From assembly GCF_002156965.1 (NCBI RefSeq), contig NZ_CP021324.1, positions 126,988-158,987 on the forward strand: a stretch of 32,000 nucleotides of DNA, written 5' to 3'. Numbering within the stretch: the first letter of the stretch is position 1; every line of letters starts with the position of its first letter. Under the pieces are notes generated by a model, which was not told the DNA's origin, did not search any database, and was given only the letters and a program-made list of their open reading frames with translations. The stretch comes from Candidatus Nitrosomarinus catalinensis. GTDB taxonomy: Archaea; Thermoproteota; Nitrososphaeria; Nitrososphaerales; Nitrosopumilaceae. Positions 926 to 26,851 of this stretch are shown in pieces. The translations under genes were made by a program, and so were the position numbers.

Positions 926-1061
926 TTTATTAAAAGATCAAGCGTTATCTCTTTAAAAATTCCCAAAAATGATACTTGAATAAATAAAATATGTAGTAAA
1001 AAACTTGAAATGGAAAAGATTTTTTACTATAATTCAAATATTAGCAAAAATTATTTGTTTT

Positions 1062-2000: not shown

Positions 2001-2010
2001 ACAATTCAAA

Positions 2011-2673: not shown

Positions 2674-2696
2674 ATTCCTAGTTTAAGTTTCAATTG

Positions 2697-3728: not shown

Positions 3729-3749
3729 ATGTATTTAACAGAAATTACT

Positions 3750-11039: not shown

Positions 11040-11045
11040 GATTTT

Positions 11046-11594
11046 CTATATTGATTTTATTACTCTGTCTCTAATACTTTTAGGATTCCATGAAACCCTT
11101 TTACTTCTTTCTTTACTTGTAGATATTTTTATCAAAAGAAATATTGGCCCTTGTAATTTTTTAATATCTTTTAAAACTGATATTAATTTAGTTTTTGTTT
11201 GAATTACAAAAATTTTATAATTTGCAGTCTTTGCAATTTTTGCTAAATTTATTTGAGATGAATTTGTTGGTTGACTTCCTGTAGATTCATGACTATTGTT
11301 ATCAAATACTATATGTACCAAATTTTTTGGTTTTAAACTCCCAATTGTAACTAAAGATCCCAAATTCATTAAAATATTTCCATCACCATCAAAAACAAAA
11401 ATTTGTTTTTTAGGATTTTTTAATGCAATACCTAATCCAATTGAAGATGCTAATCCCATTGAACCAATCATGTAAAAATTTGATTCTTTATCATTTGTTT
11501 CAAATAAATCTCTACTCATAAACCCATTTGCTGACACAATGGGATTTTTACCAATGAATTTTCCAATTATTGTTACTGCTTCTTTTCTAATCAT
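11046..11594 (-). CDS. ppd: Phosphonopyruvate decarboxylase, beta subunit (TPP diphosphate-binding domain)
   Basis: GDGNILMNLGSLVTIGSLKPKNLVHIVFDNN is the GDG-X(24-27)-NN thiamine-diphosphate motif. It overlaps the alpha subunit by 8 nt (CATGATTAG). Confidence 0.85.
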   Translation of the reverse strand: MIRKEAVTIIGKFIGKNPIVSANGFMSRDLFETNDKESNFYMIGSMGLASSIGLGIALKNPKKQIFVFDGDGNILMNLGSLVTIGSLKPKNLVHIVFDNNSHESTGSQPTNSSQINLAKIAKTANYKIFVIQTKTKLISVLKDIKKLQGPIFLLIKISTSKERSKRVSWNPKSIRDRVIKSI

Positions 11595-12075
11595 GAAACA
11601 TTCTCCTGATTATGAGAGCACATGGCTTTTTTTCTTTTAATTGTTTTAAAGCCCAATCACACTTAACTTTCCAGTTTTTTTCTGTCAAAACTTGTGATTT
11701 TAATCCAATAATTTTTAATAATTCAGGTTGAATTTTACCAATTTTCAAATGTTCTGGAGCATCATCTGCAAGATATCCTCTCCATCCAATTAAAAAAATT
11801 AATGGAATTTCATAAAGTTGTATGAGGGAAGTGATAGTACTAATAGAATTAGCAAAACCTGCATTTTGCATAAAAACTAAAGAGTTACTTTTTGAAAGAC
11901 TCATTCCAGCTGCAATTCCTATTGCTTCTTCTTCTCTAGTTGCAATTATTGAATTATTATTTTTTAAACATTCATCAATAAAATGTTTTAATGTAGAATC
12001 GGGAACACCAACAAAATTTTCAATTTTTTTATTTTTTAAATAATGAAATATTTTTCGTTGTTCTTCTTCATTCAA
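11587..12075 (-). CDS. ppd: Phosphonopyruvate decarboxylase, alpha subunit (TPP pyrimidine-binding domain)
   Basis: GVPDSTLKHF...REEEAIGIAAG...MQNAGFANS...IPLIFLIGWRG...DAPEH resembles the ComD/Ppd N-domain. The TTG start overlaps the ppm stop (TTGA). Confidence 0.85.
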   Translation of the reverse strand: MNEEEQRKIFHYLKNKKIENFVGVPDSTLKHFIDECLKNNNSIIATREEEAIGIAAGMSLSKSNSLVFMQNAGFANSISTITSLIQLYEIPLIFLIGWRGYLADDAPEHLKIGKIQPELLKIIGLKSQVLTEKNWKVKCDWALKQLKEKKPCALIIRRMFHD

Positions 12076-12971
12076 TTTATGTAACCCATTTTTTTCAAAT
12101 CCCGCTCAATGTCTGATTCTTGTTTTTTAATTTCATACATTTCTTGAAGATGAAAAATTTTATCCATTGTTGTCATATTGGTTTCAACTTCACTAAGACT
12201 TTTTGCAGATGACAATTGTTTTAGATGTTCCATCATTGCCCAATGTGCTACTCTTAATGATTGATTTGCATAAATTACCATAGAGATTTTATTTTTTTGA
12301 AGTTCATCTATTGTAACAGTGGGATAAGTTGTAGGAATAGCAATTATAGGAATTTTTCCATCCCAAGAATTACAAAATTCAAAGATCTCTTTTGGAGAAT
12401 TTTTCTTAGAATGAATTAGTATTGCATCTGCACCTGCATTTTCATAAGCTGTTGCACGCTTTAATGCCTCCTTAATTCCTTGACCAGATATCAATGCTTC
12501 AATTCTAGCAATAATCATGAAGTTAGGATTATTTTTTGCTGTTTTTCCTGCAATTATTTTTGCAACAAAATCTTTTTCAGAAAGTAACTCTTGCTTACCA
12601 TCTTCAAGTAAGCTATTTTGTTTTGGAAAAATTTTATCTTCTATACATATTGCTGCAATTCCTGCTGATTCATATTTTTTCACTAAATGACTTACGTTGC
12701 TTGGACCACCAAAACCTGTATCACAATCTGCAATTATTGGTATTGAACATGCATCAGCCATACTGGATGCTGTAGAAAGAAATTCAGTCATAGTCAAAAT
12801 ACTTGCATCAGGTAATGCGTGAGTTGCAGAAATCGCAAAACTTCCTGCCCAAACAGCATCAAAATCACTTAATTCTACTAATTTTGCAGACATTGCATCA
12901 AAAGCGCCTGCAACCTTCAAAATTGGTTTCTCCTTTAATTTCGTGCGTAAAATATTTGCTCCTTCATTCAT
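12072..12971 (-). CDS. ppm: Phosphoenolpyruvate phosphomutase (PEP mutase)
   Basis: It has the isocitrate-lyase/PEP-mutase fold. CIEDKIFPKQNSL contains the EDK-X5-NS signature that separates true PEP mutases from other family members. ADCDTGFGG is also present. Confidence 0.92.
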   Translation of the reverse strand: MNEGANILRTKLKEKPILKVAGAFDAMSAKLVELSDFDAVWAGSFAISATHALPDASILTMTEFLSTASSMADACSIPIIADCDTGFGGPSNVSHLVKKYESAGIAAICIEDKIFPKQNSLLEDGKQELLSEKDFVAKIIAGKTAKNNPNFMIIARIEALISGQGIKEALKRATAYENAGADAILIHSKKNSPKEIFEFCNSWDGKIPIIAIPTTYPTVTIDELQKNKISMVIYANQSLRVAHWAMMEHLKQLSSAKSLSEVETNMTTMDKIFHLQEMYEIKKQESDIERDLKKMGYIN

Positions 12972-13034
12972 GTGAATCGTACTAATGTTACTGATGATTT
13001 AATCTATAATAACAGATCTTTTTAACACAATTAT
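12972..13034. promoter_or_regulatory. Divergent promoter region between the ppm operon (-) and the Fe-ADH gene (+)
   Basis: A 63-nt A/T-rich gap separates the two starts. The TATA-like AATCTATAATAA (about 13001-13012) lies about 25-30 nt upstream of the GTG start at 13035. TTTAAT/ATTAAA on the other strand lies upstream of ppm. Confidence 0.3.
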
Positions 13035-13979
13035 GTGTGGAGTATAAAACAACCTTCAAAAATAATTTTTGGAGAGAACTCGGTACGAGAGTTTACATTT
13101 CCTGAGAAATGTTTAATCATTACTTCTAAAGGGGCAAAATCTAGGGGTTGGTTAGATTATTCCGGATTAAATAATCAATTAATTTTTGAGAATATTGAAT
13201 CAAATCCTTCTATAGAAACAACTAAAGAAATAATTTCAAAATTTCAAAATTCTGATTTTACTCATGTTGTTGGAATGGGTGGGGGTAGTTCAATGGATGT
13301 AGCTAAATACTGTGCATTTAAAATGAATAAATTAAAAATTATGATACCGACCACTTTTGGCAGTGGAAGTGAAGTGACTAGAATTTCGGTTCTAAAAGTT
13401 GATGGTAAGAAAAGAAGTTTTCATGACGATAAATTATTTGCAGATATTGCAATAATTGATTCTCATTTCTTAGAAAACACTCCTGATTTAATACGGAAAA
13501 ATTCATTTGTTGATGCATGTGCTCAATGTACTGAAGCATATGATAGTAAAAATTCTAATTATTATACAAAATTTCTTTGTGAAAAAGCATTTGATCTTTT
13601 GGAGAGTGGATTAAATTCAAATAATTCTAAAAAAATTGTATTGGGATCTTTGATTTCTGGATTAGGATTTGGTAATTCATCTACAACTTTGGGACATGCT
13701 TTATCTTATGTTTATTCTAATGAAGGTTATTCTCACGGTCATGCATTAGCTTTTACTACTTTAATTTCTCATAAATTCAATAATTCTAAATTCTTTAAAA
13801 GATTTACCTCATTAATCCAAAAATTAAATTTTGAAAGAATTCATCTAAATGAAAATTCTGATTTTGCATCTGAAATAATTTATCAAGATAGAAAGCATTT
13901 AGATAACAATCCGAAATCCATATCAAAATCAGATATCTCTAATCTATTACAAGAAATTGAAAAAATTAATTTAATTTAA
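13035..13979 (+). CDS. Group III iron-containing alcohol dehydrogenase (phosphonoacetaldehyde reductase candidate, giving 2-hydroxyethylphosphonate)
   Basis: GMGGGSSMDVAKY is the GGGSxxDxAK motif. His-rich metal motifs are present (GHALSYVYSNEGYSHGHALAF). The start is GTG. Context is divergent from ppm-ppd. Confidence 0.8.
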   Translation: MWSIKQPSKIIFGENSVREFTFPEKCLIITSKGAKSRGWLDYSGLNNQLIFENIESNPSIETTKEIISKFQNSDFTHVVGMGGGSSMDVAKYCAFKMNKLKIMIPTTFGSGSEVTRISVLKVDGKKRSFHDDKLFADIAIIDSHFLENTPDLIRKNSFVDACAQCTEAYDSKNSNYYTKFLCEKAFDLLESGLNSNNSKKIVLGSLISGLGFGNSSTTLGHALSYVYSNEGYSHGHALAFTTLISHKFNNSKFFKRFTSLIQKLNFERIHLNENSDFASEIIYQDRKHLDNNPKSISKSDISNLLQEIEKINLI

Positions 13980-13989
13980 TAAAAATTTT

Positions 13990-15984
13990 TTATGGTTGAC
14001 ATAATTGAACAAAAATAAATTCTATTGGATTTAAAATTTCTGAATTATATTCCCTAATTTCTCTTAACATTTTATTCAAGATTTTACTTATAAGATTATC
14101 ACCAATGCATGAATCTGTTACTGTATTTTTCATTATTTCTGTATTCGTGAAATTTGAACTATATGGAATACTTCCTTTAAAGTTAGAATTTGAAATTTTT
14201 GAATTTGAAAAATCCACGTACGTCATAATCCCTTTTTGTAAATTACTTTCATCTATTTCCATGGAAATCATTTTTGCATGTGAAAAATCCGTCTTTGATA
14301 AATTTAATTGAGACCATTTTGCATTATTTACTTTAGAATAGCGTAAATCTACTTCAATTAAATCTGAATCCAATATTATTGAATTTTTTAAATTTGAATG
14401 GTAAAGTGTACTTTGGCTAAAATTTGTATTTTTAATTATAATATTTTCAAAGTTTGATCCTCTGATAATTGTTTTTTCAAAGTTTGAATCATGAATACTA
14501 GAATTCATAAAACTACTATATCTTAATTCGGCATTTTCAAAGTTTGAATCATGAATTTCAGTATTATCTAAATTCACATTAACTAAATTTGTATTTTTAA
14601 ATTTGGAGTTACTAATTTTTGAATTTGAAAAATCCACATTTGTTAGTCTAGAATTGTCAAAGTTTACATTTTCAATATATGTTGATGATAAATTTGCAAA
14701 TGCAAGATCTACATTACTAAAATCAAGATCTGTTAAATTACAACCAGATAAATTTATTCTGGGTGATGGTTCAGCATTACAATCGTTATTTGATATATTA
14801 TCTAAAATAATATTGTTAGGTAAAATTCGATAAATTTTTCCATCAATTATTGATACAATATACATAAAACCATCTGGACCAAATTCAATATCTGTAATTC
14901 CTCTAAATCCCATTCCAAATGTAATTTCATTTAGAGAATCACCACCGTTTGCAACAAAGTCTTTCAATTGTGGATTTTTAAAAACAAATCCAGTTCTATC
15001 TTCATTTAATTTGAATTCATAAATAAATCCGTTTAAAAAATCACCTACAAAAACTGATTCTTTATAATTACTAAATAATAAATTTGAAGGGAATGCTATT
15101 GCCGTTGGAGATACTGTAAGTTCCCAACTAAATTCTGGATCACTATATTTGTAATCTTTAAACTGCGGTAACTTTTTTATTTCATTAGATTGTGCTGGTC
15201 CCGTAATTGGATCCCATCCACTGTTGAATTTATGTTCTACCAAATTTATTTCATCAAACATTTTATCATTATTTTCAGTATCCCACAATTCTCCAGTAAC
15301 TGGATCAATGGCTATTCCAAAACTATTTCTAATTCCAATTGCATAATATGGATCATTTGAATTAACATCAAAAATTATACTTGTATTATTTGAAAATCCT
15401 GTATGAAAATTTTGCAATATTCCTTTTTCGTCTGCATCTCCAATAATTGCATAAATTTTATTATCTAATCCTTTTGCAAACACTCCTGCATTATGAACAC
15501 CTCTATCTCCAAATGGTAGATTCTTTATTAAAGAAAAATCTTCTAATTTTTCTCCACTCCAATTTGCTTTATAGATACGATTTCCAATTACTGAATTTGA
15601 TATGGGATCTTTTTCTGTTAGAAAAAAATACACTGTCGATTCTGAAGAAATAACTCCTAGTAGTCCTCTTTCTGCTATATTACTCACATTAAACTTTTTT
15701 ATTGGTTCATCTTGTAATACTCCATTTTTGATTAATCTAACATTACCTGAATTTTTTTCTAAAATTATGATATCTTCTCCCACAAAAGTCATTGTAGTTG
15801 GCCATTCTAATCCTTCAACATATTCTTCAACTACAAAATTTGCATCTTTCACTATTGGAAAATCTTTATTTTGGATTAATTGATAATCTGATTCTTGTGC
15901 TGGATTTTCCTCACTAAATACTGGGGAAATTAATGTAGTTACTAATACAATTGAAATAATAAATGTAAAATATTTCATATTCAA
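13990..15984 (-). CDS. Secreted protein: signal peptide, then a glucose/sorbosone-dehydrogenase-like (GSDH) beta-propeller, then a roughly 215-aa pentapeptide-repeat domain
   Basis: The N-terminus MNMKYFTFIISIVLVTTLISPVFSEE looks like a signal peptide. GSDH-like motifs are present: GLEWPTTMTF, ERGLLGV, YAIGIRNSFGIAIDPVTGELWDTEN, FDEINLV..FNSGW and FGPDGFMYIV. The C-terminal half is continuous A(D/N)LxX-type pentapeptides (NLSGCNLTDLDFSNVDLAFANLSS...). Confidence 0.8.
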   Translation of the reverse strand: MNMKYFTFIISIVLVTTLISPVFSEENPAQESDYQLIQNKDFPIVKDANFVVEEYVEGLEWPTTMTFVGEDIIILEKNSGNVRLIKNGVLQDEPIKKFNVSNIAERGLLGVISSESTVYFFLTEKDPISNSVIGNRIYKANWSGEKLEDFSLIKNLPFGDRGVHNAGVFAKGLDNKIYAIIGDADEKGILQNFHTGFSNNTSIIFDVNSNDPYYAIGIRNSFGIAIDPVTGELWDTENNDKMFDEINLVEHKFNSGWDPITGPAQSNEIKKLPQFKDYKYSDPEFSWELTVSPTAIAFPSNLLFSNYKESVFVGDFLNGFIYEFKLNEDRTGFVFKNPQLKDFVANGGDSLNEITFGMGFRGITDIEFGPDGFMYIVSIIDGKIYRILPNNIILDNISNNDCNAEPSPRINLSGCNLTDLDFSNVDLAFANLSSTYIENVNFDNSRLTNVDFSNSKISNSKFKNTNLVNVNLDNTEIHDSNFENAELRYSSFMNSSIHDSNFEKTIIRGSNFENIIIKNTNFSQSTLYHSNLKNSIILDSDLIEVDLRYSKVNNAKWSQLNLSKTDFSHAKMISMEIDESNLQKGIMTYVDFSNSKISNSNFKGSIPYSSNFTNTEIMKNTVTDSCIGDNLISKILNKMLREIREYNSEILNPIEFIFVQLCQP
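14125..14765 (-). repeat. Coding tandem repeat (pentapeptide-repeat array) with exact internal DNA duplications
   Basis: An exact 23-mer TTTTCAAAGTTTGAATCATGAAT occurs at 14474-14496 and 14534-14556 (60-nt offset, or 4 pentapeptides). An exact 24-mer AATTTTTGAATTTGAAAAATCCAC occurs at 14194-14217 and 14614-14637 (420-nt offset). Confidence 0.85.
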
Positions 15985-18238: not shown

Positions 18239-18880
18239 ATGAGTACAGTCTCTCCTAACGCAATCGAAGAATCTTTGAAACAATGTATGGATCCTGAAGT
18301 TCCTTTAAACATTGTAGAAATGGGACTGATTTATGGAATTGATGTTAAAGAAAATAATGATGTAGATATCAAAATGACGATGACTACTCAGGGTTGTCCT
18401 TTACATGAAACTTTAGTTGCAGATGCAACAAGATTTGCAAAAAAAGTTCCAGGTGTTAATAATGTCAATATTGAGATCGTATGGGAACCTGCATGGACAA
18501 TGGATAAAATGACTGAAGAAGGAAAACTCAAAATTAAAGAAATGGGAGCTGCAGGATTAAACACTCCCGCACCAATTAATTATGAAACTGCCTTACCTCA
18601 GGGAGTTGGAAAATTAGTACAACAAGAAGATGGTTCAATGGTATTAGCTAATGAACATGAACAAGGATTTATGGTAAATCAGGCAATTGTTGATTTCTGG
18701 AAATCTTGTAATGGTCAACGTAAAGTAACAGATCTTGTAGAAGTTTTTGCTAATCAAACTGGCTTACAAAGAAATCAAGTTGAAAAAGAGGTAATGCAAT
18801 TATTACAACAATTGCGTGATGGTGGATTAATTGCGATTGCAGGGCAACCAGATCAACCAAATGTTGAATTTAAAAAATAA
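18239..18880 (+). CDS. Fusion protein: N-terminal DUF59/MIP18 (SufT/PaaD-like Fe-S assembly) domain plus C-terminal PqqD-like (RRE-type) domain
   Basis: The N-domain has DPEVPLNIVEMGLIYGIDV...TMTTQGCPL. The C-domain has FMVNQAIVDFWKSCNGQRKVTDLVEVFANQTGLQRNQVEKEVMQLLQQLRDGGLI, which has the PqqD family pattern. Confidence 0.7.
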   Translation: MSTVSPNAIEESLKQCMDPEVPLNIVEMGLIYGIDVKENNDVDIKMTMTTQGCPLHETLVADATRFAKKVPGVNNVNIEIVWEPAWTMDKMTEEGKLKIKEMGAAGLNTPAPINYETALPQGVGKLVQQEDGSMVLANEHEQGFMVNQAIVDFWKSCNGQRKVTDLVEVFANQTGLQRNQVEKEVMQLLQQLRDGGLIAIAGQPDQPNVEFKK

Positions 18881-18925: not shown

Positions 18926-19069
18926 ATGTCTAAAGAAGAACATAATAAAATTGCAAAGGTAGAGAATTTAATTTGGGAAATTGCGCAAACCTTACAACCC
19001 AATTCAATAATTCAACTTGAAAAAATAGAAAAAATTAAAAAAGATTTGTTAAAAACCTTTGATTATTAA
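18926..19069 (+). CDS. Candidate small ORF (47 aa, helical, charged), not in the supplied track
   Basis: ATG at 18926 to TAA at 19067-19069 gives MSKEEHNKIAKVENLIWEIAQTLQPNSIIQLEKIEKIKKDLLKTFDY. It fills the otherwise empty 190-nt gap upstream of the ebo-like operon. No homology was recognised. Confidence 0.25.
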   Translation: MSKEEHNKIAKVENLIWEIAQTLQPNSIIQLEKIEKIKKDLLKTFDY

Positions 19070-19073
19070 TAAA

Positions 19074-19901
19074 ATGAAACTTGGATTTAGTGTAAATGCA
19101 TTTTCTAATTACACTTTATTAGATGCCATTGAAAAAATATCAAAAACTGGATATGATGGGGTTGAAATTGTTCTAGACATACCTCATGTTTTTTTACCTA
19201 TAACTATGGAAAAAATTGCTCAAATTAAACAATCTTTAATTGTAAATAACGTAAATGTAACAAATCTTAATTCTAACACTGTTCTTGGTTGGTCAAAAAA
19301 TTTTTCTGGAGAAAAATTTGAACCATCATTATCAAATACTAATGAAAAATTTCGAAAATGGAGATTAGAATACACTAAACAATCTATCGATCTTGCTGAA
19401 AATCTTAATTGTAAATCTATTTCTATCACATCTGGTATTCAAGATTTAAAAAATTCTCAATTATGTTTAGATCTTTTTTATGATTCTTTAATTCAAATTA
19501 GTCAGTATGCCGAAAAAAAAAATATTTTAATTGGAATTGAATATGAACCTGGTCTTCTAATAGATAATTCTAATAAAGTATGGAATTTAATTTCTAAAGA
19601 TTTTAAAAATCTTGGATTAAATCTTGATACCTGTCACGCTGCAGTTAATGAAGAAAATCTATCTGATATAATTCAAAAGTTTGGTAAAAAAATTATTCAT
19701 ACTCATATTAGTGATTGTAAAAATAACATTCATTATCATTTATTGCCCGGTGAGGGAGAAATTGATTTCAAAAAATTATATGATTCTTTAAATTACATTA
19801 GTTATTCTGGATTTCTTACTGCAGAATTATACACTTATTATCAATCTCCTGAAGATGCCGCGTCAAAGGCTTTTAATTATTTAAAAAATTTAATCAAATA
19901 A
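19074..19901 (+). CDS. Xylose-isomerase-like TIM-barrel protein (sugar phosphate isomerase/epimerase family, EboE-like), copy 1
   Basis: Metal-ligand pattern of the AP-endonuclease-2/xylose-isomerase TIM family: GIEYEPG, NLDTCHA, HTHISD and TAELY. The start is placed at ATG 19074 (MKLGFSVNAF) rather than TTG 19059, by analogy with the paralogue at 20705. Confidence 0.75.
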   Translation: MKLGFSVNAFSNYTLLDAIEKISKTGYDGVEIVLDIPHVFLPITMEKIAQIKQSLIVNNVNVTNLNSNTVLGWSKNFSGEKFEPSLSNTNEKFRKWRLEYTKQSIDLAENLNCKSISITSGIQDLKNSQLCLDLFYDSLIQISQYAEKKNILIGIEYEPGLLIDNSNKVWNLISKDFKNLGLNLDTCHAAVNEENLSDIIQKFGKKIIHTHISDCKNNIHYHLLPGEGEIDFKKLYDSLNYISYSGFLTAELYTYYQSPEDAASKAFNYLKNLIK

Positions 19902-19902
19902 A

Positions 19903-20703
19903 TTGAAATTCATTGATCCTCATATCCACATGTATTCTAGAACTACTGATGATTATCAAAAAATGGCCTTATCTGGAATTAAAGCAGTAATTGAACCATC
20001 CTTTTGGTTAGGTCAAGAACGTACATCTTATGAAACTTTAAAAGATTATTGGGAATATATTATAACTTTTGAACATAATAGGGCTGCTGAATTTGGTATT
20101 GATCATTATTGTGCAATTTCTATTAACCCAAAAGAAGCAAATAATAAAAAATTTGCAAATGATTCATTAGAAATTATTGAAGATTTTCTTGTTAGGGATA
20201 ATGTAATTGCTTTAGGTGAAATAGGTTTTGATTCAATGACTAAACAGGAAGAAGATATTTTTAGAAAACAACTGATATTGGCTGATAATCTAAAAATTCC
20301 TATTATAATACACACACCACATGTGAATAAACTTGAAGGAACAAAGAAAACTTTTGAAATAATTGATGAATTACAAATCGAACAATCACGAATAATCTTA
20401 GATCATAATAATGAAGAAACTATTGAATTATCTCTTTCATATGATGTTTATTCTGGAATTACTGTTTATCCAAATACAAAATTAAGTCCTTTTCGTGCTG
20501 TAAATATATTAAAAGAATTTGGTACTGATAAAATTTTGATAAATAGTTCTGCAGATTGGGGCGTATCTGATCCATTAAGTGTTCCTAAAACTGCTCTTGA
20601 AATGAATTCAAATGGATTCAGTGAAAAAGAAATTGAAAAAGTTTTGTTTTTAAATCCAAATACTTTTTTTAAACAATCTAAAAATTACCGTTCTCTTGAA
20701 TAA
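19903..20703 (+). CDS. TatD-family metal-dependent hydrolase (EboB-like)
   Basis: The N-terminal FIDPHIHM gives the HxH motif. ALGEIGFD, IIIHTPH and ILINSSADWG are present. The TTG start is 1 nt after the preceding stop. Confidence 0.75.
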   Translation: MKFIDPHIHMYSRTTDDYQKMALSGIKAVIEPSFWLGQERTSYETLKDYWEYIITFEHNRAAEFGIDHYCAISINPKEANNKKFANDSLEIIEDFLVRDNVIALGEIGFDSMTKQEEDIFRKQLILADNLKIPIIIHTPHVNKLEGTKKTFEIIDELQIEQSRIILDHNNEETIELSLSYDVYSGITVYPNTKLSPFRAVNILKEFGTDKILINSSADWGVSDPLSVPKTALEMNSNGFSEKEIEKVLFLNPNTFFKQSKNYRSLE

Positions 20704-20704
20704 A

Positions 20705-21532
20705 ATGAAACTTGCATTTAGCTCAAATGCATATAGAAATTATTCCATTGAAGACTGTATTGATTCAATTCATTTTGCTGGTTATGATTCAATAGAAATT
20801 ATGTGTGATGTGCCTCATGCTTTTCCTCCTCTTCCCAATGAAAAAATTCAATCAATTCATAATTCTCTTAAAAAAAATTCTATGTCTATTTCAAATCTAA
20901 ATGGATTTATGATGACTGCTATAGATGATTTTCATCATCCATCTTGGATTGAAGAATCCAAAACATATAGACAAAAAAGAATAGATCATACTAAAAATTG
21001 TTTATACTTAGCTAGTTTACTGGGTGCAAAATCTGTTTCTACAGAACCTGGTGGTCCTAAAACAAATCAATCATCTGAAAAAGAATTAGAAATTTTTCAA
21101 GAGGGTTTACTTGAAGTTCTACCTTTAGCTGAAGATTTGGGTGTCCATTTACTTATAGAACCTGAACCTGAATTATTAATAGAAAATTCAAGTCAATTTG
21201 TTAGATTTATTGAAAAGTTCGATTCAAAATATTTAGGGTTAAATTTTGATATCGGACATTTTTTTTGTGTAAATGAAGATCCTGAAAAATTAATTATTAA
21301 TTTACATGATTACATCAAGCATATTCATTTAGAAGATATTGCATATTCAAAAAAACATCATCATTTAATTCCTGGTCATGGCGCAATTGATTTTAAAAAA
21401 TTTTTTACTTCATTAAATTCTATTAATTATACTGGATATGTTACGGTTGAACTTTATCCTTATCAAAATAATCCTCAAGATGCAGCAATAGAATCTATGA
21501 CCTATCTAAAATCTTTAATTGAAAATGTTTAA
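20705..21532 (+). CDS. Xylose-isomerase-like TIM-barrel protein (EboE-like), copy 2
   Basis: LLIEPEPE, NFDIGHF, HIHLEDI and TVELY are present. It is the same length (275 aa) and architecture as 19074-19901. Both share the start context AATAAAATGAAACTTG.ATTTAG. Confidence 0.75.
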   Translation: MKLAFSSNAYRNYSIEDCIDSIHFAGYDSIEIMCDVPHAFPPLPNEKIQSIHNSLKKNSMSISNLNGFMMTAIDDFHHPSWIEESKTYRQKRIDHTKNCLYLASLLGAKSVSTEPGGPKTNQSSEKELEIFQEGLLEVLPLAEDLGVHLLIEPEPELLIENSSQFVRFIEKFDSKYLGLNFDIGHFFCVNEDPEKLIINLHDYIKHIHLEDIAYSKKHHHLIPGHGAIDFKKFFTSLNSINYTGYVTVELYPYQNNPQDAAIESMTYLKSLIENV

Positions 21533-22364
21533 GGAATATTTACAACTGATAAGACTTCCTGGTATTTTTACAGCATTTAGTAATGTTTTGGTAGGTTACT
21601 TTTTTTCATTCACATTTAATTCTGAAATATTTCTTTTACCCTATCTTCTTACTACTTCAGGCATGTTATTTTGTTCAGGCATGATTTTTAATGATTATTT
21701 TGATTATGATCTTGATAAAAAAGAAAGATCATTAAGGCCTTTAGCTTCAGGAAAAATTTCAAAAAAAAATGCATTATTAATTGGATTCATTTTTCTCATA
21801 ATGGCAAATATTTCTGCTTCATTTCTTGGATTTGACTCATTAATTATTTCATTAATTTTAACATGTGCAATATTATTTTATAATTTTAAATTAAAATCTA
21901 TTTCATTCTTAGGGATTATTAATTTATCAATAATTAGAATGTTAAATATTTTATTAGGATTCTCAATTATTGGTATTTCTTTTCAATATATTCAATATTT
22001 GATCCCTTTAGGAATTTTTGTCTTTGGAATTAGTATACTTGCTAAAAATGAAGTAAAATCAAATCAAATAATTTATAAAAAATTGAATAAAATTATGATT
22101 ATTACTACTATTGCATGTGTATCTATTTTCGTAGTTAATAATTTTCAATTTGAATCATTACTATTTTTAGGATTATTTTCTTCTTTATCTCTATATTCTT
22201 TGTTTTTTAAAAAAATTCAAAATCAAATTACATTTCAATTACTATTAATTATTTTATTAGATTCTATCATAATTTCATTTTTTGTACCTTTACAATTTCC
22301 TATCTTTGTATCGTTACTAATTTTACCTGCATATGCTATATCAAAAAAATTGTATCTAACATAA
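21519..22364 (+). CDS. UbiA-superfamily membrane prenyltransferase-like protein (EboC-like)
   Basis: It is polytopic and hydrophobic. The first Asp-rich motif and following loop are intact: NDYFDYDLDKKERSLRPLASGKIS. No second DxxxD motif is visible. It overlaps the upstream gene by 14 nt. Confidence 0.75.
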   Translation: MKMFKEYLQLIRLPGIFTAFSNVLVGYFFSFTFNSEIFLLPYLLTTSGMLFCSGMIFNDYFDYDLDKKERSLRPLASGKISKKNALLIGFIFLIMANISASFLGFDSLIISLILTCAILFYNFKLKSISFLGIINLSIIRMLNILLGFSIIGISFQYIQYLIPLGIFVFGISILAKNEVKSNQIIYKKLNKIMIITTIACVSIFVVNNFQFESLLFLGLFSSLSLYSLFFKKIQNQITFQLLLIILLDSIIISFFVPLQFPIFVSLLILPAYAISKKLYLT

Positions 22365-22406
22365 TTGAAATGGGTTTATTTCTATCTAATTTTTATACTA
22401 ATTATG

Positions 22407-23705
22407 AAAAAATTAATTGTTTTAGATATTGTGGGTTTATCAAAAAAACAATATACTGAAATAAAACCTCAAAATATTTCTAAAATTTTAGAAATGGGTT
22501 CTGTTTCTTCGTTTAAACCTTCTTTTCCTGCAGTTACATGTAGTGTTCAAGCATCAATTTTTTCTGGAACTTATCCTTCTGAACATGGAATAATATCTAA
22601 TGGATACTATGACCAAATTTTGAAGCATGTGTCTTTTTGGGAACAATCATCTGATTTAGTAAATTCACCTAGAATTTGGGATACATTAAAAAAAAAATTA
22701 CCTGACTTCAAATCTGGATTGTTATTTTTACAAAATTCCCTTTATGCTAACTCTGATGTAGTAATCACTCCAAAACCTATTCACCTTGATGATAAAATGA
22801 TTATGTGGTGTTATTCTAAACCAGAAAATTTTTATGAAAAAATTAGTGAATCTATTGGTAATTTTGATCTTAAATCCTATTGGGGTCCATTTTCATCGAT
22901 ACAATCTAGTACTTGGATAATTAATTCAGCAAAAAAAACTATTGAGACTCATAAACCTGATCTTTTGATTATTTATCTTCCACACCTTGACTACACTTCT
23001 CAAAAATTTGGTCCTGACAGTGATGAATTCAAAGACAGTGTAATGGAATTAGATAATCTATTGGGTGATTTTTCACTCTTTTTGAATCAAGAATTTAATG
23101 ATGAATATGAAATTATTATTTTATCTGAGTATACTTTTAATTCAGTCAGTAAATCTATTTCCCCGAATTTAATCTTACGACAAGCTGGATTACTTTCTAC
23201 TAGAAGAATTGAAGGAAAAGATTACATCGATTATGAATTTAGTAAAGCATTTGCAATGGTTGATCATCAGATTGCTCATATTTACATTAATCCTGGTTAT
23301 GAGGATGAGGTTTATCAAATTCTAAAAAATAAAAATTTAGGAATAATTTTGGACTCAAAATTACAAAAGGAATTAAAAATCAATCATCAAAAAAGTGGAA
23401 ATTTAATTTTATGCGCTAATACTGATTCATGGTTCAATTATTATTGGTGGGATGATGTCAAATATGCACCTGATTTCACATTTTCTGTAGATATTCATAG
23501 AAAACCCGGTTATGATCCACTGGAATTATTTTTTGATTTTAAAACTAAACAAATATCCCATGATACTTCGTTAATAAAAGGCTCACATGGATTAATTCCA
23601 ACAGATGATAATCTACCTCTAATTGGAACTTCATTTAATTCGAATCTTGATAAAATAGTATCTGCTATAGACATAAAACAGTTAATTGAGAATTTTTTTA
23701 AATAA
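22407..23705 (+). CDS. Nucleotide pyrophosphatase/phosphodiesterase (NPP, alkaline-phosphatase superfamily, EboF-like)
   Basis: LIVLDIVGLS (metal Asp) is present. FPAVTCSVQASIFSGTYPSEHGIISN matches the NPP Thr-nucleophile motif, and YLPHLDY is present. The start is placed at ATG 22407 (MKKLIVLD), since TTG 22365 adds a 14-aa hydrophobic extension. Confidence 0.75.
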   Translation, partial: KKLIVLDIVGLSKKQYTEIKPQNISKILEMGSVSSFKPSFPAVTCSVQASIFSGTYPSEHGIISNGYYDQILKHVSFWEQSSDLVNSPRIWDTLKKKLPDFKSGLLFLQNSLYANSDVVITPKPIHLDDKMIMWCYSKPENFYEKISESIGNFDLKSYWGPFSSIQSSTWIINSAKKTIETHKPDLLIIYLPHLDYTSQKFGPDSDEFKDSVMELDNLLGDFSLFLNQEFNDEYEIIILSEYTFNSVSKSISPNLILRQAGLLSTRRIEGKDYIDYEFSKAFAMVDHQIAHIYINPGYEDEVYQILKNKNLGIILDSKLQKELKINHQKSGNLILCANTDSWFNYYWWDDVKYAPDFTFSVDIHRKPGYDPLELFFDFKTKQISHDTSLIKGSHGLIPTDDNLPLIGTSFNSNLDKIVSAIDIKQLIENFFK

Positions 23706-23708
23706 AAA

Positions 23709-24719
23709 TTATTTATTTGCAGTAATTATCACTTTAATTCTTTTTTTACCTTTTTTTGCAATTTTTATACCTTTTACTGCATCTTCAATTTTAAATTCAT
23801 GAGTGATAAATTTTTTTAATTTAATTTTATTTTTTGAAATAAAATTCATTGCATCAAAAAAATTATTATTTGTAGCAGAATAACTGGTAATTATTTTAAT
23901 TTCTTTAGAATAAATTAACGACATGTCTAATTTGATTATTGAATTTTCTCTAGGTTCTCCAAAAAATAATATTGTTCCACCTTTTCTTAATACATTTACA
24001 GCTACATTAACGCATGTTATATCGTGATTTGCAATTATACATAAATCAATTTTTTCATTATATTTTTTAAATTCTGTATTTTTAAAATTTAAAAAATTCT
24101 TGCCTAATTTTTCATTTTTTCCAAATTTTTTTCTAAAATCATCATTATCAACAATTGTTGTTTTAAGTCCATTTTGCTTAGCAATTATTGAATGAAAAAT
24201 TCCTATTAATCCAAACCCAAATATCATTATTGAATCATTTCTTTGTACATGAATTTTTTTCCATGCTCTTAAACAACATGCTAAAGGTTCTATCAGAGTT
24301 GCTTCATTAAACGACATTTTTTCTGGAATTTTAAAAATTCCCTTTTTTTGAATTATCCAATTTGAAATTTTAAATTTTTCTGCTAATCCACACGGATTAA
24401 TTTCTTCAGTAAATTTTTCACACATTGTTTCATTTCCATGTAAACAATAATGACAATTTTCACATGGACAATGATGATTGATAATTATTTTCTCTCCTAT
24501 TTGATAATCTTTAATTTTTTTACCAATTTGTGAGACTATTCCTGAAATTTCATGACCTATTTTATGAGTAGGTTTTGATGATTTTTCAAAAATATTTCCA
24601 ATATCTGAACCACAAATACCACATGCTTTTAATTTGACAATAATTTCATCTTCTCCACAAGTTTCTTCTTTATGATTTTCTATTACTGGTACTTTTGCTT
24701 TGATTGAAACTACTTTCAT
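23709..24719 (-). CDS. Zinc-dependent medium-chain alcohol/polyol dehydrogenase
   Basis: ACGICGSD and GHEISG are catalytic zinc motifs. CPCENCHYCLHGNETMC is the structural zinc lobe. A Rossmann motif (FGFGLIG) is present. Confidence 0.85.
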   Translation of the reverse strand: MKVVSIKAKVPVIENHKEETCGEDEIIVKLKACGICGSDIGNIFEKSSKPTHKIGHEISGIVSQIGKKIKDYQIGEKIIINHHCPCENCHYCLHGNETMCEKFTEEINPCGLAEKFKISNWIIQKKGIFKIPEKMSFNEATLIEPLACCLRAWKKIHVQRNDSIMIFGFGLIGIFHSIIAKQNGLKTTIVDNDDFRKKFGKNEKLGKNFLNFKNTEFKKYNEKIDLCIIANHDITCVNVAVNVLRKGGTILFFGEPRENSIIKLDMSLIYSKEIKIITSYSATNNNFFDAMNFISKNKIKLKKFITHEFKIEDAVKGIKIAKKGKKRIKVIITANK

Positions 24720-24763: not shown

Positions 24764-25411
24764 TTAAAATATATAATTTGAGTTTGCACCATCAAAATTT
24801 ATTGTTACACCTGAAAGATATTTGATATCGTTTTCAATAATTGCTTTCACAAAATTTCCAATCTCTTCAGGTTTTCCAAGTCTTTTCATTGGTAATGTTT
24901 TCTCAAATTCCTCTACATTTTCAATAAGCTCTTGAGTTCTATCTGTGTTAATTGGTCCTGGTGCAATATTGATACAACTAATATTATTTTGAGCATATTC
25001 TTTACTCAAAACTTTGAAAACTTCTGAAAATGCTGCTCTATATGCTGACGAAATAATTAATTTTTCATTTGGTTCTTTTATTACATTTGAGCTAATCAAA
25101 AATATGTATCCTCCATCATTTAGTTTGATATTTTGTAATATGGTAACAAATCCTAGAAATAATTGATTGTGATACTTATTCCAATCTTCTTCAGTAACTG
25201 TTGAAAATGGTTTTGGTTTTGGACCTCCGGTATTTAGAATTAAGATATCTGTTTCATTATTTATTTTCAAAAATTCTTTGACACTATTCAAATTTGATGT
25301 ATCGATATCTTTTTGAGAAGTTGCAAAAACATCAATATCTATTGTTTTTAAAGAATCTGAAATTGCTTTTCCAATCCCACGAGAACCACCCAAAACTATT
25401 GCTTTAGTCAT
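24764..25411 (-). CDS. Short-chain dehydrogenase/reductase (SDR), atypical active-site motif
   Basis: GGSRGIG is the TGxxxGIG-type motif, with LNTGG and NIAPGPINTD also present. The expected S...YxxxK reads SSAYRAAF, with no Lys at +4. Confidence 0.75.
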   Translation of the reverse strand: MTKAIVLGGSRGIGKAISDSLKTIDIDVFATSQKDIDTSNLNSVKEFLKINNETDILILNTGGPKPKPFSTVTEEDWNKYHNQLFLGFVTILQNIKLNDGGYIFLISSNVIKEPNEKLIISSAYRAAFSEVFKVLSKEYAQNNISCINIAPGPINTDRTQELIENVEEFEKTLPMKRLGKPEEIGNFVKAIIENDIKYLSGVTINFDGANSNYIF

Positions 25412-25705: not shown

Positions 25706-25915
25706 ATGAATGATGATGAAAAAGGAAAAGAATTTCTAAAATTAATAGATGAACAAAATACATTACAATGGAATATTGTTGCCAAATTATCCTCTTTAAT
25801 TAAATCTGAATGGAATTCTCCAGAATTAAAAACTGAAGTTGAAAATTTGGTTAAAGATCATTATAAAATTACAAAGGATCTCAATAGCTTAGACAATAAT
25901 GACAGTATCTTATAA
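25706..25915 (+). CDS. Small hypothetical protein (69 aa, acidic, helical)
   Basis: It has an ATG start and sits in otherwise non-coding space. It overlaps the 3' end of ctaB by 6 nt in convergent orientation. No recognisable family. Confidence 0.35.
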   Translation: MNDDEKGKEFLKLIDEQNTLQWNIVAKLSSLIKSEWNSPELKTEVENLVKDHYKITKDLNSLDNNDSIL

Positions 25916-26851
25916 TGCAGAGTCTACCATTAATGCAATAAATAATACAGCCAAATATGGACTTGAAAACTTAAACAATGTCCATGCAGCTGTCTCCATT
26001 GGTTTTACTGTAACCCAAACTGATAATCCTAACATTAGTGCTCCTGATGCAATTGCAGTCCACAAATAAACATCACCTACCATATTTTCACCATTTTCAG
26101 TTGTGATGAAAAATGGTGCAATTGAAAATAATACCATGACAACTGTTGATAATGCAATAGCTCTTGCTGATGTTTTTTCTGATTGTACTGCAGTTAACAT
26201 TGGAACATTTACTTTGTTATAATCTTCTTTGAAATGTAATGTTAAAGCCCAAATATGCATTGGAATCCAAATAAACACTAATCCAGCCATTGCAAGACCC
26301 ATTGTCCATAAATCTGACATAGTTACTGCTACCCAACCAATCATTGGAGGCGAACCTCCACATAGTCCTCCTAAAATAATATTGGTTCTAGAATTTCGTT
26401 TTAGCACATATGAATAAACAATAATGTTGTTTACTAATGCAAATGCAATGAAAATTGTTGCCCATATTCCTTGCTCTAATGTTGTAGTAAATGAAATTGC
26501 AAAAGCCAATACCAATGATATGCCTGCCAATGCCAATCCAAAATTTCTTGCTTTAACTGCAGGGTAAATTCTCTTTGATGGAAGGGGTCTATCTTTTGTT
26601 CTTTCCATGATTGCATCAATATCTCTATCGTGATAGTTTGTCAAAGTATTAGCTGCTGCAGAACCTGCTGCAACTGAAAATAACATTAATGCCCAAGTCT
26701 CAATTGAAATTGGAATATTGTAAATATTTGATGCTGTCAATGCTGCACCAAATGCAGTAAATACCAGTAGATACCAAATTTTTGGTTTTGTTAATTCATA
26801 ATAAACTGCGACTCTTGAACCAGTTGTCTGTTCTTGCAATGTATTATTCAC
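25910..26851 (-). CDS. ctaB: Protoheme IX farnesyltransferase (heme O synthase)
   Basis: It is a UbiA-family membrane protein with NYHDRDIDAIMERTKDRPLPS (motif 1) and FKEDYNKVNVPML (the CtaB-type second motif). The GTG start overlaps the Lrp stop. Confidence 0.85.
   Translation of the reverse strand: MNNTLQEQTTGSRVAVYYELTKPKIWYLLVFTAFGAALTASNIYNIPISIETWALMLFSVAAGSAAANTLTNYHDRDIDAIMERTKDRPLPSKRIYPAVKARNFGLALAGISLVLAFAISFTTTLEQGIWATIFIAFALVNNIIVYSYVLKRNSRTNIILGGLCGGSPPMIGWVAVTMSDLWTMGLAMAGLVFIWIPMHIWALTLHFKEDYNKVNVPMLTAVQSEKTSARAIALSTVVMVLFSIAPFFITTENGENMVGDVYLWTAIASGALMLGLSVWVTVKPMETAAWTLFKFSSPYLAVLFIALMVDSAL

Follow-up and report, generated by a model that had tools for sequence, protein, structure and literature searches.

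Is the compact gene cluster of this ammonia-oxidizing archaeon (AOA) a version of the ebo cluster and, if so, what could it be making? The earlier note on the window (the whole stretch of 32,000 nucleotides analyzed here) had described five tightly coupled genes, encoding a TIM barrel (TIM1), a TatD hydrolase, a second TIM barrel (TIM2), a UbiA-like membrane protein and a nucleotide pyrophosphatase/phosphodiesterase (NPP). We have found all five ORFs on the plus strand as described, real, tightly packed and conserved. The gaps read off the sequence are 1 nt between TIM1 and TatD and 1 nt between TatD and TIM2, UbiA overlaps TIM2 by 8 nt if it begins at the ATG, as the NCBI protein P0001 does, and by 14 nt if it begins at the TTG, and NPP begins 39 nt past UbiA or, if a TTG start is used, directly abuts it. 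NPP is always preceded by a gap of 26-43 nt in the orthologous loci, so the ATG at 22404 is favored. The start of TatD must be the TTG at 19903, since a stop codon lies just 5' of it and the PHIH metal motif comes directly after it. What had been overlooked is a 47-aa ORF upstream and a Zn-dependent dehydrogenase (Zn-ADH) of the conserved neighborhood; the locus consists of six co-directional genes in one operon plus a linked dehydrogenase (Table 1).

Table 1. Genes of the ebo-like locus and its flank (positions in the window).
Gene	Position	Strand	Remarks
Small 47-aa protein NMSP_0162	18926-19069	+	First gene of the operon; ends 4 nt upstream of TIM1
TIM1 (TIMa family)	19074-19901	+	Pfam AP_endonuc_2, E 3.6e-34
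EboB-like TatD	19903-20703	+	Pfam PF01026, E 7.7e-16; TTG start
TIM2 (TIMb family)	20705-21532	+	Pfam AP_endonuc_2, E 4.2e-43
EboC-like UbiA	21525-22364 (ATG) or from 21519 (TTG)	+	Pfam PF01040, E 5.5e-22
EboF-like NPP	22404-23705 (ATG) or from 22365 (TTG)	+	Pfam PF01663 (Phosphodiest), E 4.1e-50
Zn-dependent medium-chain dehydrogenase (Zn-ADH)	23709-24719	-	Pfam ADH_N and ADH_zinc_N
Short-chain dehydrogenase/reductase	24764-25411	-	Pfam adh_short; upstream of Zn-ADH

As the reference ebo operon we have used that of Pedobacter alluvionis (locus L003), in which EboA, C, D and E pass the NCBIfam cut-offs. The TatD protein is 47% identical to the Pedobacter EboB over 259 aa (49% to the homologue of B. 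cereus, 46% to those of Streptomyces and Natronococcus), and the motifs that it has in common with EboB homologues include SRTTDDY, EPxFWLG, GEIGxD, DHNxEET and NSxADWGxSDPLxVP. On TIGR00010, the family of TatD exonucleases, it scores only 50 bits (cut-off 206), and its nearest solved structure is AF_1765, an uncharacterised protein. By its sequence, it is a clear EboB homologue and a predicted TatD-fold metallohydrolase. Equally clear is the homology of NPP to EboF, with 38% identity to the Pedobacter protein over 449 aa (43% to B. cereus, 37% to Natronococcus) and with EboF-family invariant motifs that include FPAVT, HxDY, SEY, DHQ, VDIH[RK]KPG[YF]DP and GSHG. It would be a phosphodiesterase or phosphatase of the alkaline phosphatase superfamily, and the predicted Thr nucleophile (FPAVT) is invariant among archaeal and bacterial EboF homologues. 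Both assignments, and the nucleophile, had been anticipated correctly.

The UbiA protein, 100% identical to P0001 from Ca. Nitrosomarinus catalina, is named DGGGP synthase at NCBI, a label that is probably wrong. Its top NCBIfam match is EboC (NF035940) at 143 bits (cut-off 250), followed by the next family at 70 bits, and the DGGGPS models give 54-60 bits against cut-offs of 296-353. EboC was also the best NCBIfam match of all seven archaeal homologues scanned (six linked to a cluster and a solitary gene of Nitrososphaeraceae), the archaeal orthologues scoring 133-190 bits on this model. The protein and archaeal DGGGP synthase both have the fold of the UbiA superfamily and a first Asp-rich motif, but in the protein the second Asp-rich motif is replaced by [KR]xE, while NDxxDxxxD, a C-terminal LD motif and a terminal T are found also in bona fide EboC. 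Among solved structures a DGGGP synthase comes closest, at only 41 bits. Placed in a tree, as the earlier note had suggested, all the cluster-linked EboC-like proteins form a single clade (91% NJ bootstrap) that leaves CtaB and a DGGGPS-like archaeal UbiA outside. These data indicate a clear EboC homologue and a putative membrane prenyltransferase of the UbiA superfamily. The AOA protein is strongly diverged (28-33% identity to the Pedobacter EboC, 34% to that of B. cereus, which owes its name to PGAP, and a score under the NCBIfam cut-off), so its acceptor and prenyl donor may differ.

The two TIM barrels are indeed paralogous (37-39% identity), but they are no local duplication, and to call the barrel duplicated, as the earlier note did, is misleading: each has separate orthologues in Bacillus and haloarchaea. 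Neither is the canonical EboE that had been proposed, since on the NCBIfam EboE model TIM1 scores 26 bits and TIM2 45 bits (cut-off 250), with a remote profile similarity in TIM2 only (91.5% hhalign probability against the long EboE, over 150 columns). Both are short and xylose-isomerase-like, and each belongs to an old family of its own, TIM1 to TIMa and TIM2 to TIMb. TIM1 shares 44% identity with the TIM that comes first in a plasmid cluster of B. cereus and 37% with the TIM encoded by the fourth gene in Natronococcus. For TIM2 the identities are 49% with the TIMb of B. cereus, 45% with that of Natronococcus and 48% with a TIM of Gemmataceae that sits in a MIPS-TIM-UbiA operon. In NJ trees, which are crude, the TIMa clade has a bootstrap of 78% and TIMb only 61%. 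The best NCBIfam matches of TIM1 are IolO, fructoselysine 3-epimerase and IolE, every one under its cut-off, and the acidic and His residues that are conserved as candidate metal ligands are kept; the enzyme probably depends on a metal and isomerises or dehydrates a cyclitol. TIMa or TIMb might stand in for the absent EboE, or might not.

The 47-aa protein at the head of the operon had no match in Pfam or NCBIfam. A profile search gave 211 homologues and, among the matches listed, 120 out of 120 are stand-alone proteins of 46-76 aa; across 34 aligned homologues H6, N14, L15, W17, E18 and A20 are invariant and P25 nearly so. Kinship with EboA was rejected (hhalign probability 0.1-0.2%). The AlphaFold2 model has two helices (mean pLDDT 85), a predicted helical hairpin, and the gene occupies the equivalent place in a further four divergent loci (L016, L020, L021 and L023). 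It may be an AOA-specific accessory. At the other end of the locus, Zn-ADH is convergent with NPP, 3 nt from its stop. Loci L019 and L020 carry a homologue (39-40% identical) that is co-directional with NPP and overlaps it by 4 nt, the NPP-TIM operon of L024 starts with a Zn-ADH, and in L021 and L023 there is none. Linkage in three of the five divergent AOA clades sampled makes it frequent, not universal. Its closest solved structures are ketose reductase and sorbitol, xylitol and L-arabinitol dehydrogenases, and it is a probable polyol-type accessory enzyme oxidising the cyclitol. The short-chain dehydrogenase appears beside it in the nearest relatives alone (L016 and L017) and in none of the more distant loci, which makes its membership of the system doubtful.

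Along the AOA lineages the linkage is kept, which supports the earlier note and is more than chance would give. The five-gene order is retained, among differing flanking genes, on contigs with a UbiA 86%, 52%, 46% and 41% identical to that of the window, and at 36% (L024) the set is divided into two divergent operons with an unrelated TIM barrel in the place of TIM1. No other member of the cluster is as constant as UbiA, in archaea and bacteria alike, and in several loci UbiA overlaps or abuts TIM2, which suggests translational coupling; the homologue of Nitrososphaeraceae stands unclustered. Neither EboD nor EboA, both already reported missing, was found in the window or in any related archaeal locus, and no MIPS (inositol-3-phosphate synthase) was seen either in the window or in the AOA loci examined.

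A way to approach the origin of the cyclitol is to look at the sister clusters outside the AOA. The cluster recurs on megaplasmids of the B. cereus group (NZ_CP045607.2), where plasmid p1 of B. cereus carries TIMa-TatD-TIMb-EboC-NPP-MIPS, with the UbiA gene called eboC by PGAP; the order of the first five is identical to that of the AOA, at identities by position of 44% (TIMa), 49% (EboB), 49% (TIMb), 34% (EboC) and 43% (EboF). In haloarchaea (Natronococcus, Haladaptatus and Haloferax volcanii pHV3) the gene set matches but the order differs, and the cluster usually adjoins MIPS, which lies within it in Natronococcus and Haloferax (a Gfo/Idh/MocA oxidoreductase is close by in Haladaptatus) and takes the place of EboD. 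This two-short-TIM, MIPS-linked variant of B. cereus and haloarchaea is the closest known relative of the AOA cluster, both being uncharacterised. Bacillus and Natronococcus also have a PQQ-dependent sugar dehydrogenase nearby; the AOA have no MIPS in the cluster but Zn-ADH instead, and the 47-aa protein in addition. Gemmataceae have an operon MIPS-TIMb-EboC-like. The Actinomycetota type (Streptomyces plasmid locus L028), that of the saccharoquinoline/thallusin producers (bioRxiv 10.64898/2026.05.21.724671), also has EboB and EboF homologues and no EboD, and obtains its cyclitol via MIPS and short TIM-barrel "isomerase/dehydratase" genes. Unlike the AOA, it retains both EboA and an EboE of the canonical long form; its short TIM is of a third family, TIMc (also in Pirellulaceae), and its EboC-like prenyltransferase is of the SCO3242 family. 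The haloarchaeal UbiA clusters with this family and not with the AOA, suggesting separate acquisition of the cluster by the two archaeal lineages. The canonical eboABCDEF of Bacteroidota, Cyanobacteria and eustigmatophyte plastids shares with the window adjacent, co-directional EboB, EboC and EboF homologues and a common logic (cyclitol, TIM-barrel tailoring, hydrolase, phosphohydrolase and membrane prenyltransferase). The window lacks its EboA, EboD (sugar-phosphate cyclase) and long EboE (380 aa), and has instead two short TIM barrels (~275 aa) of other families, along with the 47-aa protein and the Zn dehydrogenase; its EboC-like protein scores under the equivalog cut-off. The suggestion of inositol phosphate as a substitute for the cyclase product gains support from gene context, with MIPS inside the clusters of Bacillus cereus, Natronococcus, Haloferax volcanii, Gemmataceae and Streptomyces.

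The earlier view that ebo chemistry is unknown is outdated. EboD forms a deoxy-inosose. The core genes have been tied to thallusin and saccharoquinoline, thallusin needing each of eboB, C, E and F (EboE is essential for it in Stieleria); bacterial EboC enzymes from three phyla farnesylate or prenylate hydroxyquinaldic acids, deletions of the core abolish a secreted meroterpenoid, Actinomycetota have ebo clusters without eboD and with inositol genes, and ebo clusters were detected in two archaeal phyla (bioRxiv 10.64898/2026.05.21.724671; for thallusin, this single preprint without peer review is the source). We consider it reasonably probable that the cluster is the AOA version of an inositol-fed, cyclase-free ebo variant with a prenylated, cyclitol-derived metabolite as its product. 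The cyclitol would come from MIPS, which in AOA would have to be encoded outside the window, and not from EboD. Zn-ADH together with TIMa and TIMb, which have among their relatives IolE (an inosose dehydratase) and IolI (an inosose isomerase), might oxidise, isomerise or dehydrate the inositol ring to an intermediate that resembles a deoxy-inosose or is more dehydrated. The EboB-like metallohydrolase and the EboF-like phosphohydrolase, firm as homologues, would presumably perform the bacterial core steps, which in the thallusin model couple the cyclitol to L-aspartate to yield a hydroxylated quinaldic acid, and the membrane EboC-like enzyme would add the prenyl chain, farnesyl diphosphate being the substrate of bacterial EboC enzymes in vitro (bioRxiv 10.64898/2026.05.21.724671). 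The end product would be a small molecule akin to saccharoquinoline or thallusin, and no core membrane lipid. The absence of a canonical EboE (45 bits against 250) and of EboA counts against this reading, as do the strong divergence of the EboC-like protein, the lack of MIPS in the AOA loci examined, the two AOA clades of five without a linked Zn-ADH, the crude trees and the single preprint behind the thallusin link.

With EboE and EboA absent, the product could depart from thallusin, and a membrane lipid, in which UbiA ether-links a long prenyl chain directly to an inositol-derived ring and the resulting isoprenoid-cyclitol lipid, carrier lipid or novel head group stays in the membrane, is the alternative that survives best. 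It is the idea of the earlier note, although we regard it as unlikely and now as the less likely product. The UbiA superfamily does include lipid-building enzymes (among them the closest solved structure), an inositol supply is tied to the cluster in sister lineages, the MIPS of the Haloferax volcanii cluster (HVO_B0213) is an inositol-1-phosphate synthase placed under membrane-lipid biosynthesis in PMC8305020, and an isoprenoid-cyclitol compound was the original 2016 ebo proposal (PMC5133447). Against it are the prenylation of hydroxyquinaldic acids by EboC and the loss of a secreted product on deletion of the core (bioRxiv 10.64898/2026.05.21.724671), the low DGGGPS scores (cut-offs near 300) and the missing second Asp-rich motif of lipid prenyltransferases. 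Along these lines, the Nitrososphaeraceae homologue is unclustered, and the sister clusters found here in the B. cereus group, haloarchaea and Streptomyces are on plasmid-collection records, typical of accessory and not of core lipid metabolism.

We find it very improbable that the locus serves the catabolism or salvage of inositol or sugar phosphates, with Iol-like epimerases and dehydratases, a phosphatase and a dehydrogenase, and with UbiA as an unrelated neighbor or a DGGGP synthase: the TIM-barrel matches to IolO, IolE and sugar-epimerase models, the polyol dehydrogenase-like Zn-ADH and the NCBI name of UbiA would fit, but the Iol and epimerase matches are all far under their cut-offs, and UbiA, the most constant and apparently translationally coupled member, sits in the EboC clade and not with DGGGPS. 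AOA are, besides, chemolithoautotrophs with scant sugar catabolism. Least probable of all is a relic kept by linkage that makes no metabolite, for although the locus has only three of the six canonical ebo genes and the cluster has no cyclitol-forming gene (EboD, EboE, EboA and MIPS being the key components absent), the intact ORFs, the conserved candidate catalytic and metal-binding residues, the order and tight coupling kept across AOA clades at 36-52% UbiA identity and the hundreds of distinct metagenomic variants point to purifying selection on function.

Thallusin is a growth signal for seaweeds. Since the ebo cluster of bacteria is linked to thallusin by a 2026 preprint, and a stripped-down, conserved version of it is present in this marine archaeon, the abundant ammonia-oxidizing archaea may make a related prenylated, sugar-ring-derived compound.

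The five open reading frames of the earlier note lie on the forward strand, and their limits, Pfam domains and junctions agree with its description (see table). As read from the sequence, a single nucleotide separates TIM1 from TatD and TatD from TIM2 (TIM1 and TIM2 being the two short TIM barrels), the ATG start chosen by NCBI makes UbiA overlap TIM2 by 8 nt and a TTG start would lengthen this to 14 nt, and 39 nt lie between UbiA and NPP, the EboF-like gene. The G+C content of the window is low (about 25-34%), and its UbiA-like protein is 100% identical to one from the marine ammonia oxidizer Candidatus Nitrosomarinus catalina. The TatD gene can start only at the TTG at 19903, given the stop codon just 5' of it and the PHIH metal motif immediately 3'. 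For the EboB-like genes of other ammonia-oxidizing archaea (AOA; L016 8376-9179, and loci L020, L023 and L024), metagenome calls begin at an internal methionine (MYSRTTDDY) and lose the N-terminal HxH metal motif. Since tblastn homology reaches 5' of these called starts, the non-ATG start seems to be conserved and systematically miscalled.

Features of the window in its own coordinates, with domain matches and remarks
Feature	Coordinates	Strand	Domain match or remark
Surface-glycan island	110-4754		Typical genes: DegT-type aminotransferase, formyltransferase, PIG-L deacetylase, GT28-like glycosyltransferase, NeuB
Radical-SAM/SPASM protein	5306-6364		Resembles a sulfatase-maturating enzyme
Sulfatase-family protein	6401-7726		3' of the radical-SAM/SPASM gene
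HTH-containing protein	7798-9159		453 aa; between the two sulfatases
Sulfatase-family protein	9201-10304		3' of the radical-SAM/SPASM gene
Phosphonate set	10305-13979		The four genes that follow
Nucleotidyltransferase	10305-11039	-	
TPP-dependent decarboxylase, split	11046-12075	-	Phosphonopyruvate decarboxylase-like
PEP phosphomutase	12072-12971	-	
Fe-alcohol dehydrogenase	13035-13979	+	
GSDH protein	13990-15984	-	664 aa; fusion of glucose/sorbosone dehydrogenase (GSDH) domain and pentapeptide repeats
SufT/DUF59-PqqD protein	18239-18880	+	Unusual fusion of Fe-S assembly type and peptide-chaperone domains; directly 5' of the operon
NMSP_0162	18926-19069		47 aa; 4 nt 5' of TIM1; hypothetical protein (NCBI)
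TIM1	19074-19901	+	AP_endonuc_2, E 3.6e-34
TatD	19903-20703	+	TatD_DNase, E 7.7e-16
TIM2	20705-21532	+	AP_endonuc_2, E 4.2e-43
UbiA	21525-22364	+	UbiA, E 5.5e-22
NPP	22404-23705	+	Phosphodiest, E 4.1e-50
Zn-ADH	23709-24719	-	Dehydrogenase
CtaB	25910-26851	-	Heme O synthase, 229-240 bits, above cut-off; 2.2 kb downstream

A 47-aa open reading frame that had been overlooked, NMSP_0162, heads the operon. A profile search returned 211 homologues, and all of the matches listed (120/120) are stand-alone proteins of 46-76 aa. Their alignment has an invariant core, H-x7-NL-x-WE-x-A, and the AlphaFold2 model is a helical hairpin (mean pLDDT 85). The protein matched no Pfam, NCBIfam or EboA profile. We considered it as a possible remnant of EboA and rejected this, the EboA model being silent and the hhalign probability only 0.1-0.2%. 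Among the other genes of the window, the phosphonate set is reminiscent of the known Nitrosopumilus phosphonate pathway, and the SufT/DUF59-PqqD gene keeps its place beside the operon in the closest relatives (L016-18) and loses it in more distant clades.

As a reference for the ebo families we have used Pedobacter, for which a genome scan returned four loci with canonical eboABCDEF; NCBIfam confirmed this operon (EboA; EboC, 391 bits; EboD, PRK06203, 572 bits; EboE, 496 bits). The TatD protein is 47% identical to Pedobacter EboB over 259 aa, scores below the cut-off of the generic TatD exonuclease model (50 against 206 bits), and only TIM2 separates its gene from the EboC-like one. It has motifs in common with EboB, whose alignment contains the invariant SRTTDDY, EPxFWLG and NSxADWGxSDPLxVP. 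NPP is likewise a member of its family, being 38% identical to Pedobacter EboF over 449 aa and 43% to the Bacillus cereus protein; the invariant EboF motifs are FPAVT (with the Thr nucleophile), HxDY, VDIH[RK]KPG[YF]DP and GSHG.

The UbiA protein is more diverged (28-33% identity to Pedobacter EboC). Its 143 bits on the EboC model NF035940 lie under the cut-off of 250 bits and yet exceed the next family by a factor of two, and EboC was the best NCBIfam family for 7/7 archaeal homologues scanned (133-190 bits, all under the cut-off). Similarly low scores (146-153 bits) were obtained for the EboC-like genes of Pirellulaceae (L002) and of a Planctomycetota MAG (L001). These UbiA-like proteins and true EboC have the first Asp-rich motif in common, the second one replaced by [KR]xE, and a C-terminal LD motif with a terminal Thr. 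In a neighbor-joining (NJ) tree, crude and with few outgroups, all cluster-linked EboC-like proteins, including those of Pedobacter and B. cereus, formed a single clade (91% bootstrap) separate from CtaB and a DGGGPS-like protein. An unrelated archaeal UbiA (L008) retains an Asp-containing second motif and fell among the non-EboC proteins. The window UbiA lacks the second Asp-rich motif and scores well under the DGGGPS models, with 60 bits on NF009521 (cut-off 296) and 54 bits on NF009522 (cut-off 353). With scores this far from cut-offs near 300, the NCBI name "DGGGP synthase" is unsupported and likely a misannotation. The second UbiA-superfamily gene of the window, ctaB, has nothing to do with the cluster.

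The TIM barrels are a different matter, and here the ebo interpretation of the earlier note, which stands for EboB, EboC and EboF, does not hold. On the EboE model (NF035939, a barrel of about 380 aa, cut-off 250 bits) TIM2 scored 45 and TIM1 26 bits. TIM2 matched Pedobacter EboE at 24% identity over 152 aa (E about 1e-6 to 2e-6), and hhalign gave probabilities of 91.5% for TIM2 and 23.7% for TIM1. Judged by these profile and alignment scores, neither is a canonical EboE. Among NCBIfam and PDB entries, both are closest to epimerases, isomerases and dehydratases that act on sugars or inososes, and to uncharacterised archaeal proteins such as MJ1311. The two are paralogous, as had been noted (37-39% identical), but they belong to two families with orthologues elsewhere. 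TIM1 falls in the family that we call TIMa (44% to B. cereus, 37% to Natronococcus; NJ bootstrap 78%) and TIM2 in TIMb (49% to B. cereus, 45% to Natronococcus, 48% to Gemmataceae; 61%), assignments to which the best-match relations also lead. The duplication is therefore old and moves with the cluster across domains. The short TIMs of Streptomyces and Pirellulaceae form a third family (100% bootstrap), and the conserved acidic and His positions, putative metal ligands, are kept in all short TIMs compared. A frameshift breaks the TIMb gene of the Planctomycetota MAG into two ORFs (L001 9115-9989), probably an assembly error, since intact orthologues are abundant. Near the Gemmataceae operon (L026) lies a 388-aa TIM barrel that we considered as a canonical EboE; it had no BLAST similarity to the Pedobacter protein.

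The remaining ebo components appear to be missing. As the earlier note had stated, EboD and EboA are lacking: tblastn with the Pedobacter proteins gave no match in the window or in any of the AOA loci, and there was no DHQ_synthase domain among the window ORFs scanned. Long EboE is also absent from the window and from every AOA locus. Neither the window nor the 7-21 kb covered at each AOA locus contained an inositol-3-phosphate synthase (MIPS) domain.

A genome-contig scan with a single UbiA protein as query recovered no Nitrosopumilales; apart from one unrelated archaeal locus, its matches were bacterial. On contigs that encode UbiA homologues, the cluster is kept in related archaea, over a range of UbiA identity from 86% down to 36%, and the named carriers are all labelled Nitrosopumilaceae. 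Loci L016-18 (86%) match the window in gene order, with the small ORF and the convergent Zn-ADH/SDR pair also in place. At 52% (L020) the small ORF, TIM1, TatD, TIM2, UbiA, NPP and Zn-ADH are co-directional, the last two overlapping by 4 nt. The six genes found in the window are followed by an epimerase at 46% (L021/22) and by a CN-hydrolase at 41% (L023). The most distant locus (L024, 36%) has divergent operons, ZnADH-NPP-TIM and TatD-TIM2-UbiA, with TIM1 swapped for an unrelated TIM barrel. Since the flanking genes differ at every AOA locus, conservation applies to the linkage of these genes as such. A Nitrososphaeraceae homologue from a soil AOA (L014 6691-7608; 37% identity) is unclustered, with no TatD, TIM or NPP within 6-10 kb; it scores 190 bits on NF035940, above the marine proteins, and adjoins a MarC-family gene. 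In the 52% clade, EgtB-like (DinB_2/FGE-sulfatase) and EgtD-like (Methyltransf_33) genes lie 3' of the cluster (L019 3850-6197), which suggests ergothioneine-type thiol-histidine biosynthesis next door.

Searching plasmid records by tblastn revealed sister clusters outside the AOA. Plasmid p1 of B. cereus carries TIMa-TatD-TIMb-EboC-NPP-MIPS, the order of the window with orthologous TIMa and TIMb, and PGAP names its UbiA gene eboC. The order is TatD-TIMb-UbiA-TIMa-MIPS-NPP in Natronococcus, and in Haloferax volcanii pHV3 NPP and MIPS are divergent from TatD-TIMb-UbiA-TIMa. Haladaptatus has the same gene set with a Gfo/Idh/MocA oxidoreductase close by, MIPS being absent from this locus. A Streptomyces plasmid combines MIPS, an SCO3242-family prenyltransferase and a short TIM with EboA, EboB, EboE and EboF. 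Besides these plasmid records, a Gemmataceae-like locus has MIPS and an EboC-like gene on either side of a TIM2 orthologue, which shares 44-50% identity with the TIM2 proteins of AOA. MIPS is thus part of the cluster in B. cereus, Natronococcus, Haloferax, Gemmataceae and Streptomyces; the two-short-TIM variant of B. cereus and haloarchaea has the gene set of the window, whereas the AOA cluster contains no MIPS. The MIPS of H. volcanii (HVO_B0213) is listed under membrane-lipid biosynthesis in PMC8305020, the retrieved passages of which do not mention its neighbours. PQQ-dependent sugar dehydrogenases adjoin the variant in B. cereus and Natronococcus. The GSDH protein of the window was examined as their kin; it had no BLAST match to the B. 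cereus enzyme and is absent beside the cluster in relatives, so we take its proximity as coincidental.

An isoprenoid-cyclitol compound was proposed as product when the ebo operon was first defined, in 2016 (PMC5133447), and EboD makes a deoxy-inosose, as cited in a review (PMC12904256). According to a preprint of May 2026 (bioRxiv 10.64898/2026.05.21.724671), ebo genes are found in all confirmed producers of thallusin/saccharoquinoline and in no non-producer, deletion of eboB, C, E or F in Stieleria stops production, the quinoline core derives from L-aspartate and a cyclitol, EboC farnesylates hydroxyquinaldic acids, and Actinomycetota clusters have ino1-3 and no eboD. The same work, screening at a threshold of 1e-3, reports ebo clusters in two archaeal phyla, named in neither text nor supplement (bioRxiv 10.64898/2026.05.21.724671). 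Given the E ~1e-6 of TIM2 against Pedobacter EboE, the AOA cluster would probably pass this threshold, and the two phyla are plausibly, by our own reckoning, Thermoproteota (Nitrososphaeria) and Halobacteriota. We found no paper describing the archaeal or Bacillus architecture, or Nitrosopumilus with UbiA and TatD, and the saccharoquinoline and streptoquinoline papers contained no gene-cluster data. According to the preprint, no enzyme is known for oxidising saccharoquinoline to thallusin (bioRxiv 10.64898/2026.05.21.724671), which makes a laccase-like oxidase a candidate. Both H. volcanii pHV3 (L030 13149-14804) and the Streptomyces plasmid encode a multicopper oxidase within a few kb of the cluster, which on the latter is also flanked by a ScyD/ScyE-family protein (L028 14008-15486 and 3880-5079).

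The best-supported model is an inositol-fed variant of the ebo pathway. Homology, synteny and motif conservation are its observed basis, and from them we infer substrates, order of steps and product. Inositol phosphate would be supplied by MIPS, encoded within the cluster in four other lineages and presumably elsewhere in the AOA genome. A recruited dehydrogenase (polyol-type Zn-ADH in AOA, PQQ-type in Bacillus and Natronococcus, Gfo/Idh/MocA in Haladaptatus) together with TIMa and TIMb would convert inositol into a deoxy-inosose-like intermediate in place of the EboD product. EboB and EboF would carry out the conserved core steps, and EboC would prenylate the product in the membrane. As canonical EboE and EboA are absent and EboC has diverged, this product may differ from thallusin. 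Tentatively, marine AOA and haloarchaea might make either a thallusin/saccharoquinoline-like prenylated quinoline or a distinct, inositol-derived prenylated cyclitol, the short TIMs and a polyol dehydrogenase substituting for EboD, EboA and canonical EboE. That the product is instead a membrane lipid or head group seems rather unlikely, considering the biochemistry of bacterial EboC, the occurrence of clusters on megaplasmids and the lack of the lipid-type motif. A catabolic role, or a UbiA that is the DGGGPS of its annotation, is very improbable in view of the family scores and the constancy of the UbiA gene, and this same constancy and conservation make a decaying relic harder still to believe.

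If they do make such a compound by this route, some of the most abundant microbes in the ocean would be producers, so far unrecognised, of an algal morphogen or a metal-chelating signal, and the minimal ebo chemistry would comprise EboB, EboC and EboF plus interchangeable cyclitol-tailoring modules. The architecture separates these three invariant proteins from a replaceable cyclitol source and replaceable TIM-barrel tailoring enzymes, a split that helps to assign roles to the enzymes of this incompletely described pathway. The occurrence of the same variant in the genetically tractable H. volcanii (pHV3) and in B. cereus makes the question directly testable. Thallusin, a metal chelator, controls seaweed development at picomolar concentrations. 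Were the cluster active, the ocean-abundant thaumarchaeal ammonia oxidizers would gain a secondary-metabolite pathway of the thallusin-linked family, and the chemical interaction between archaea and algae would extend beyond vitamin B12.
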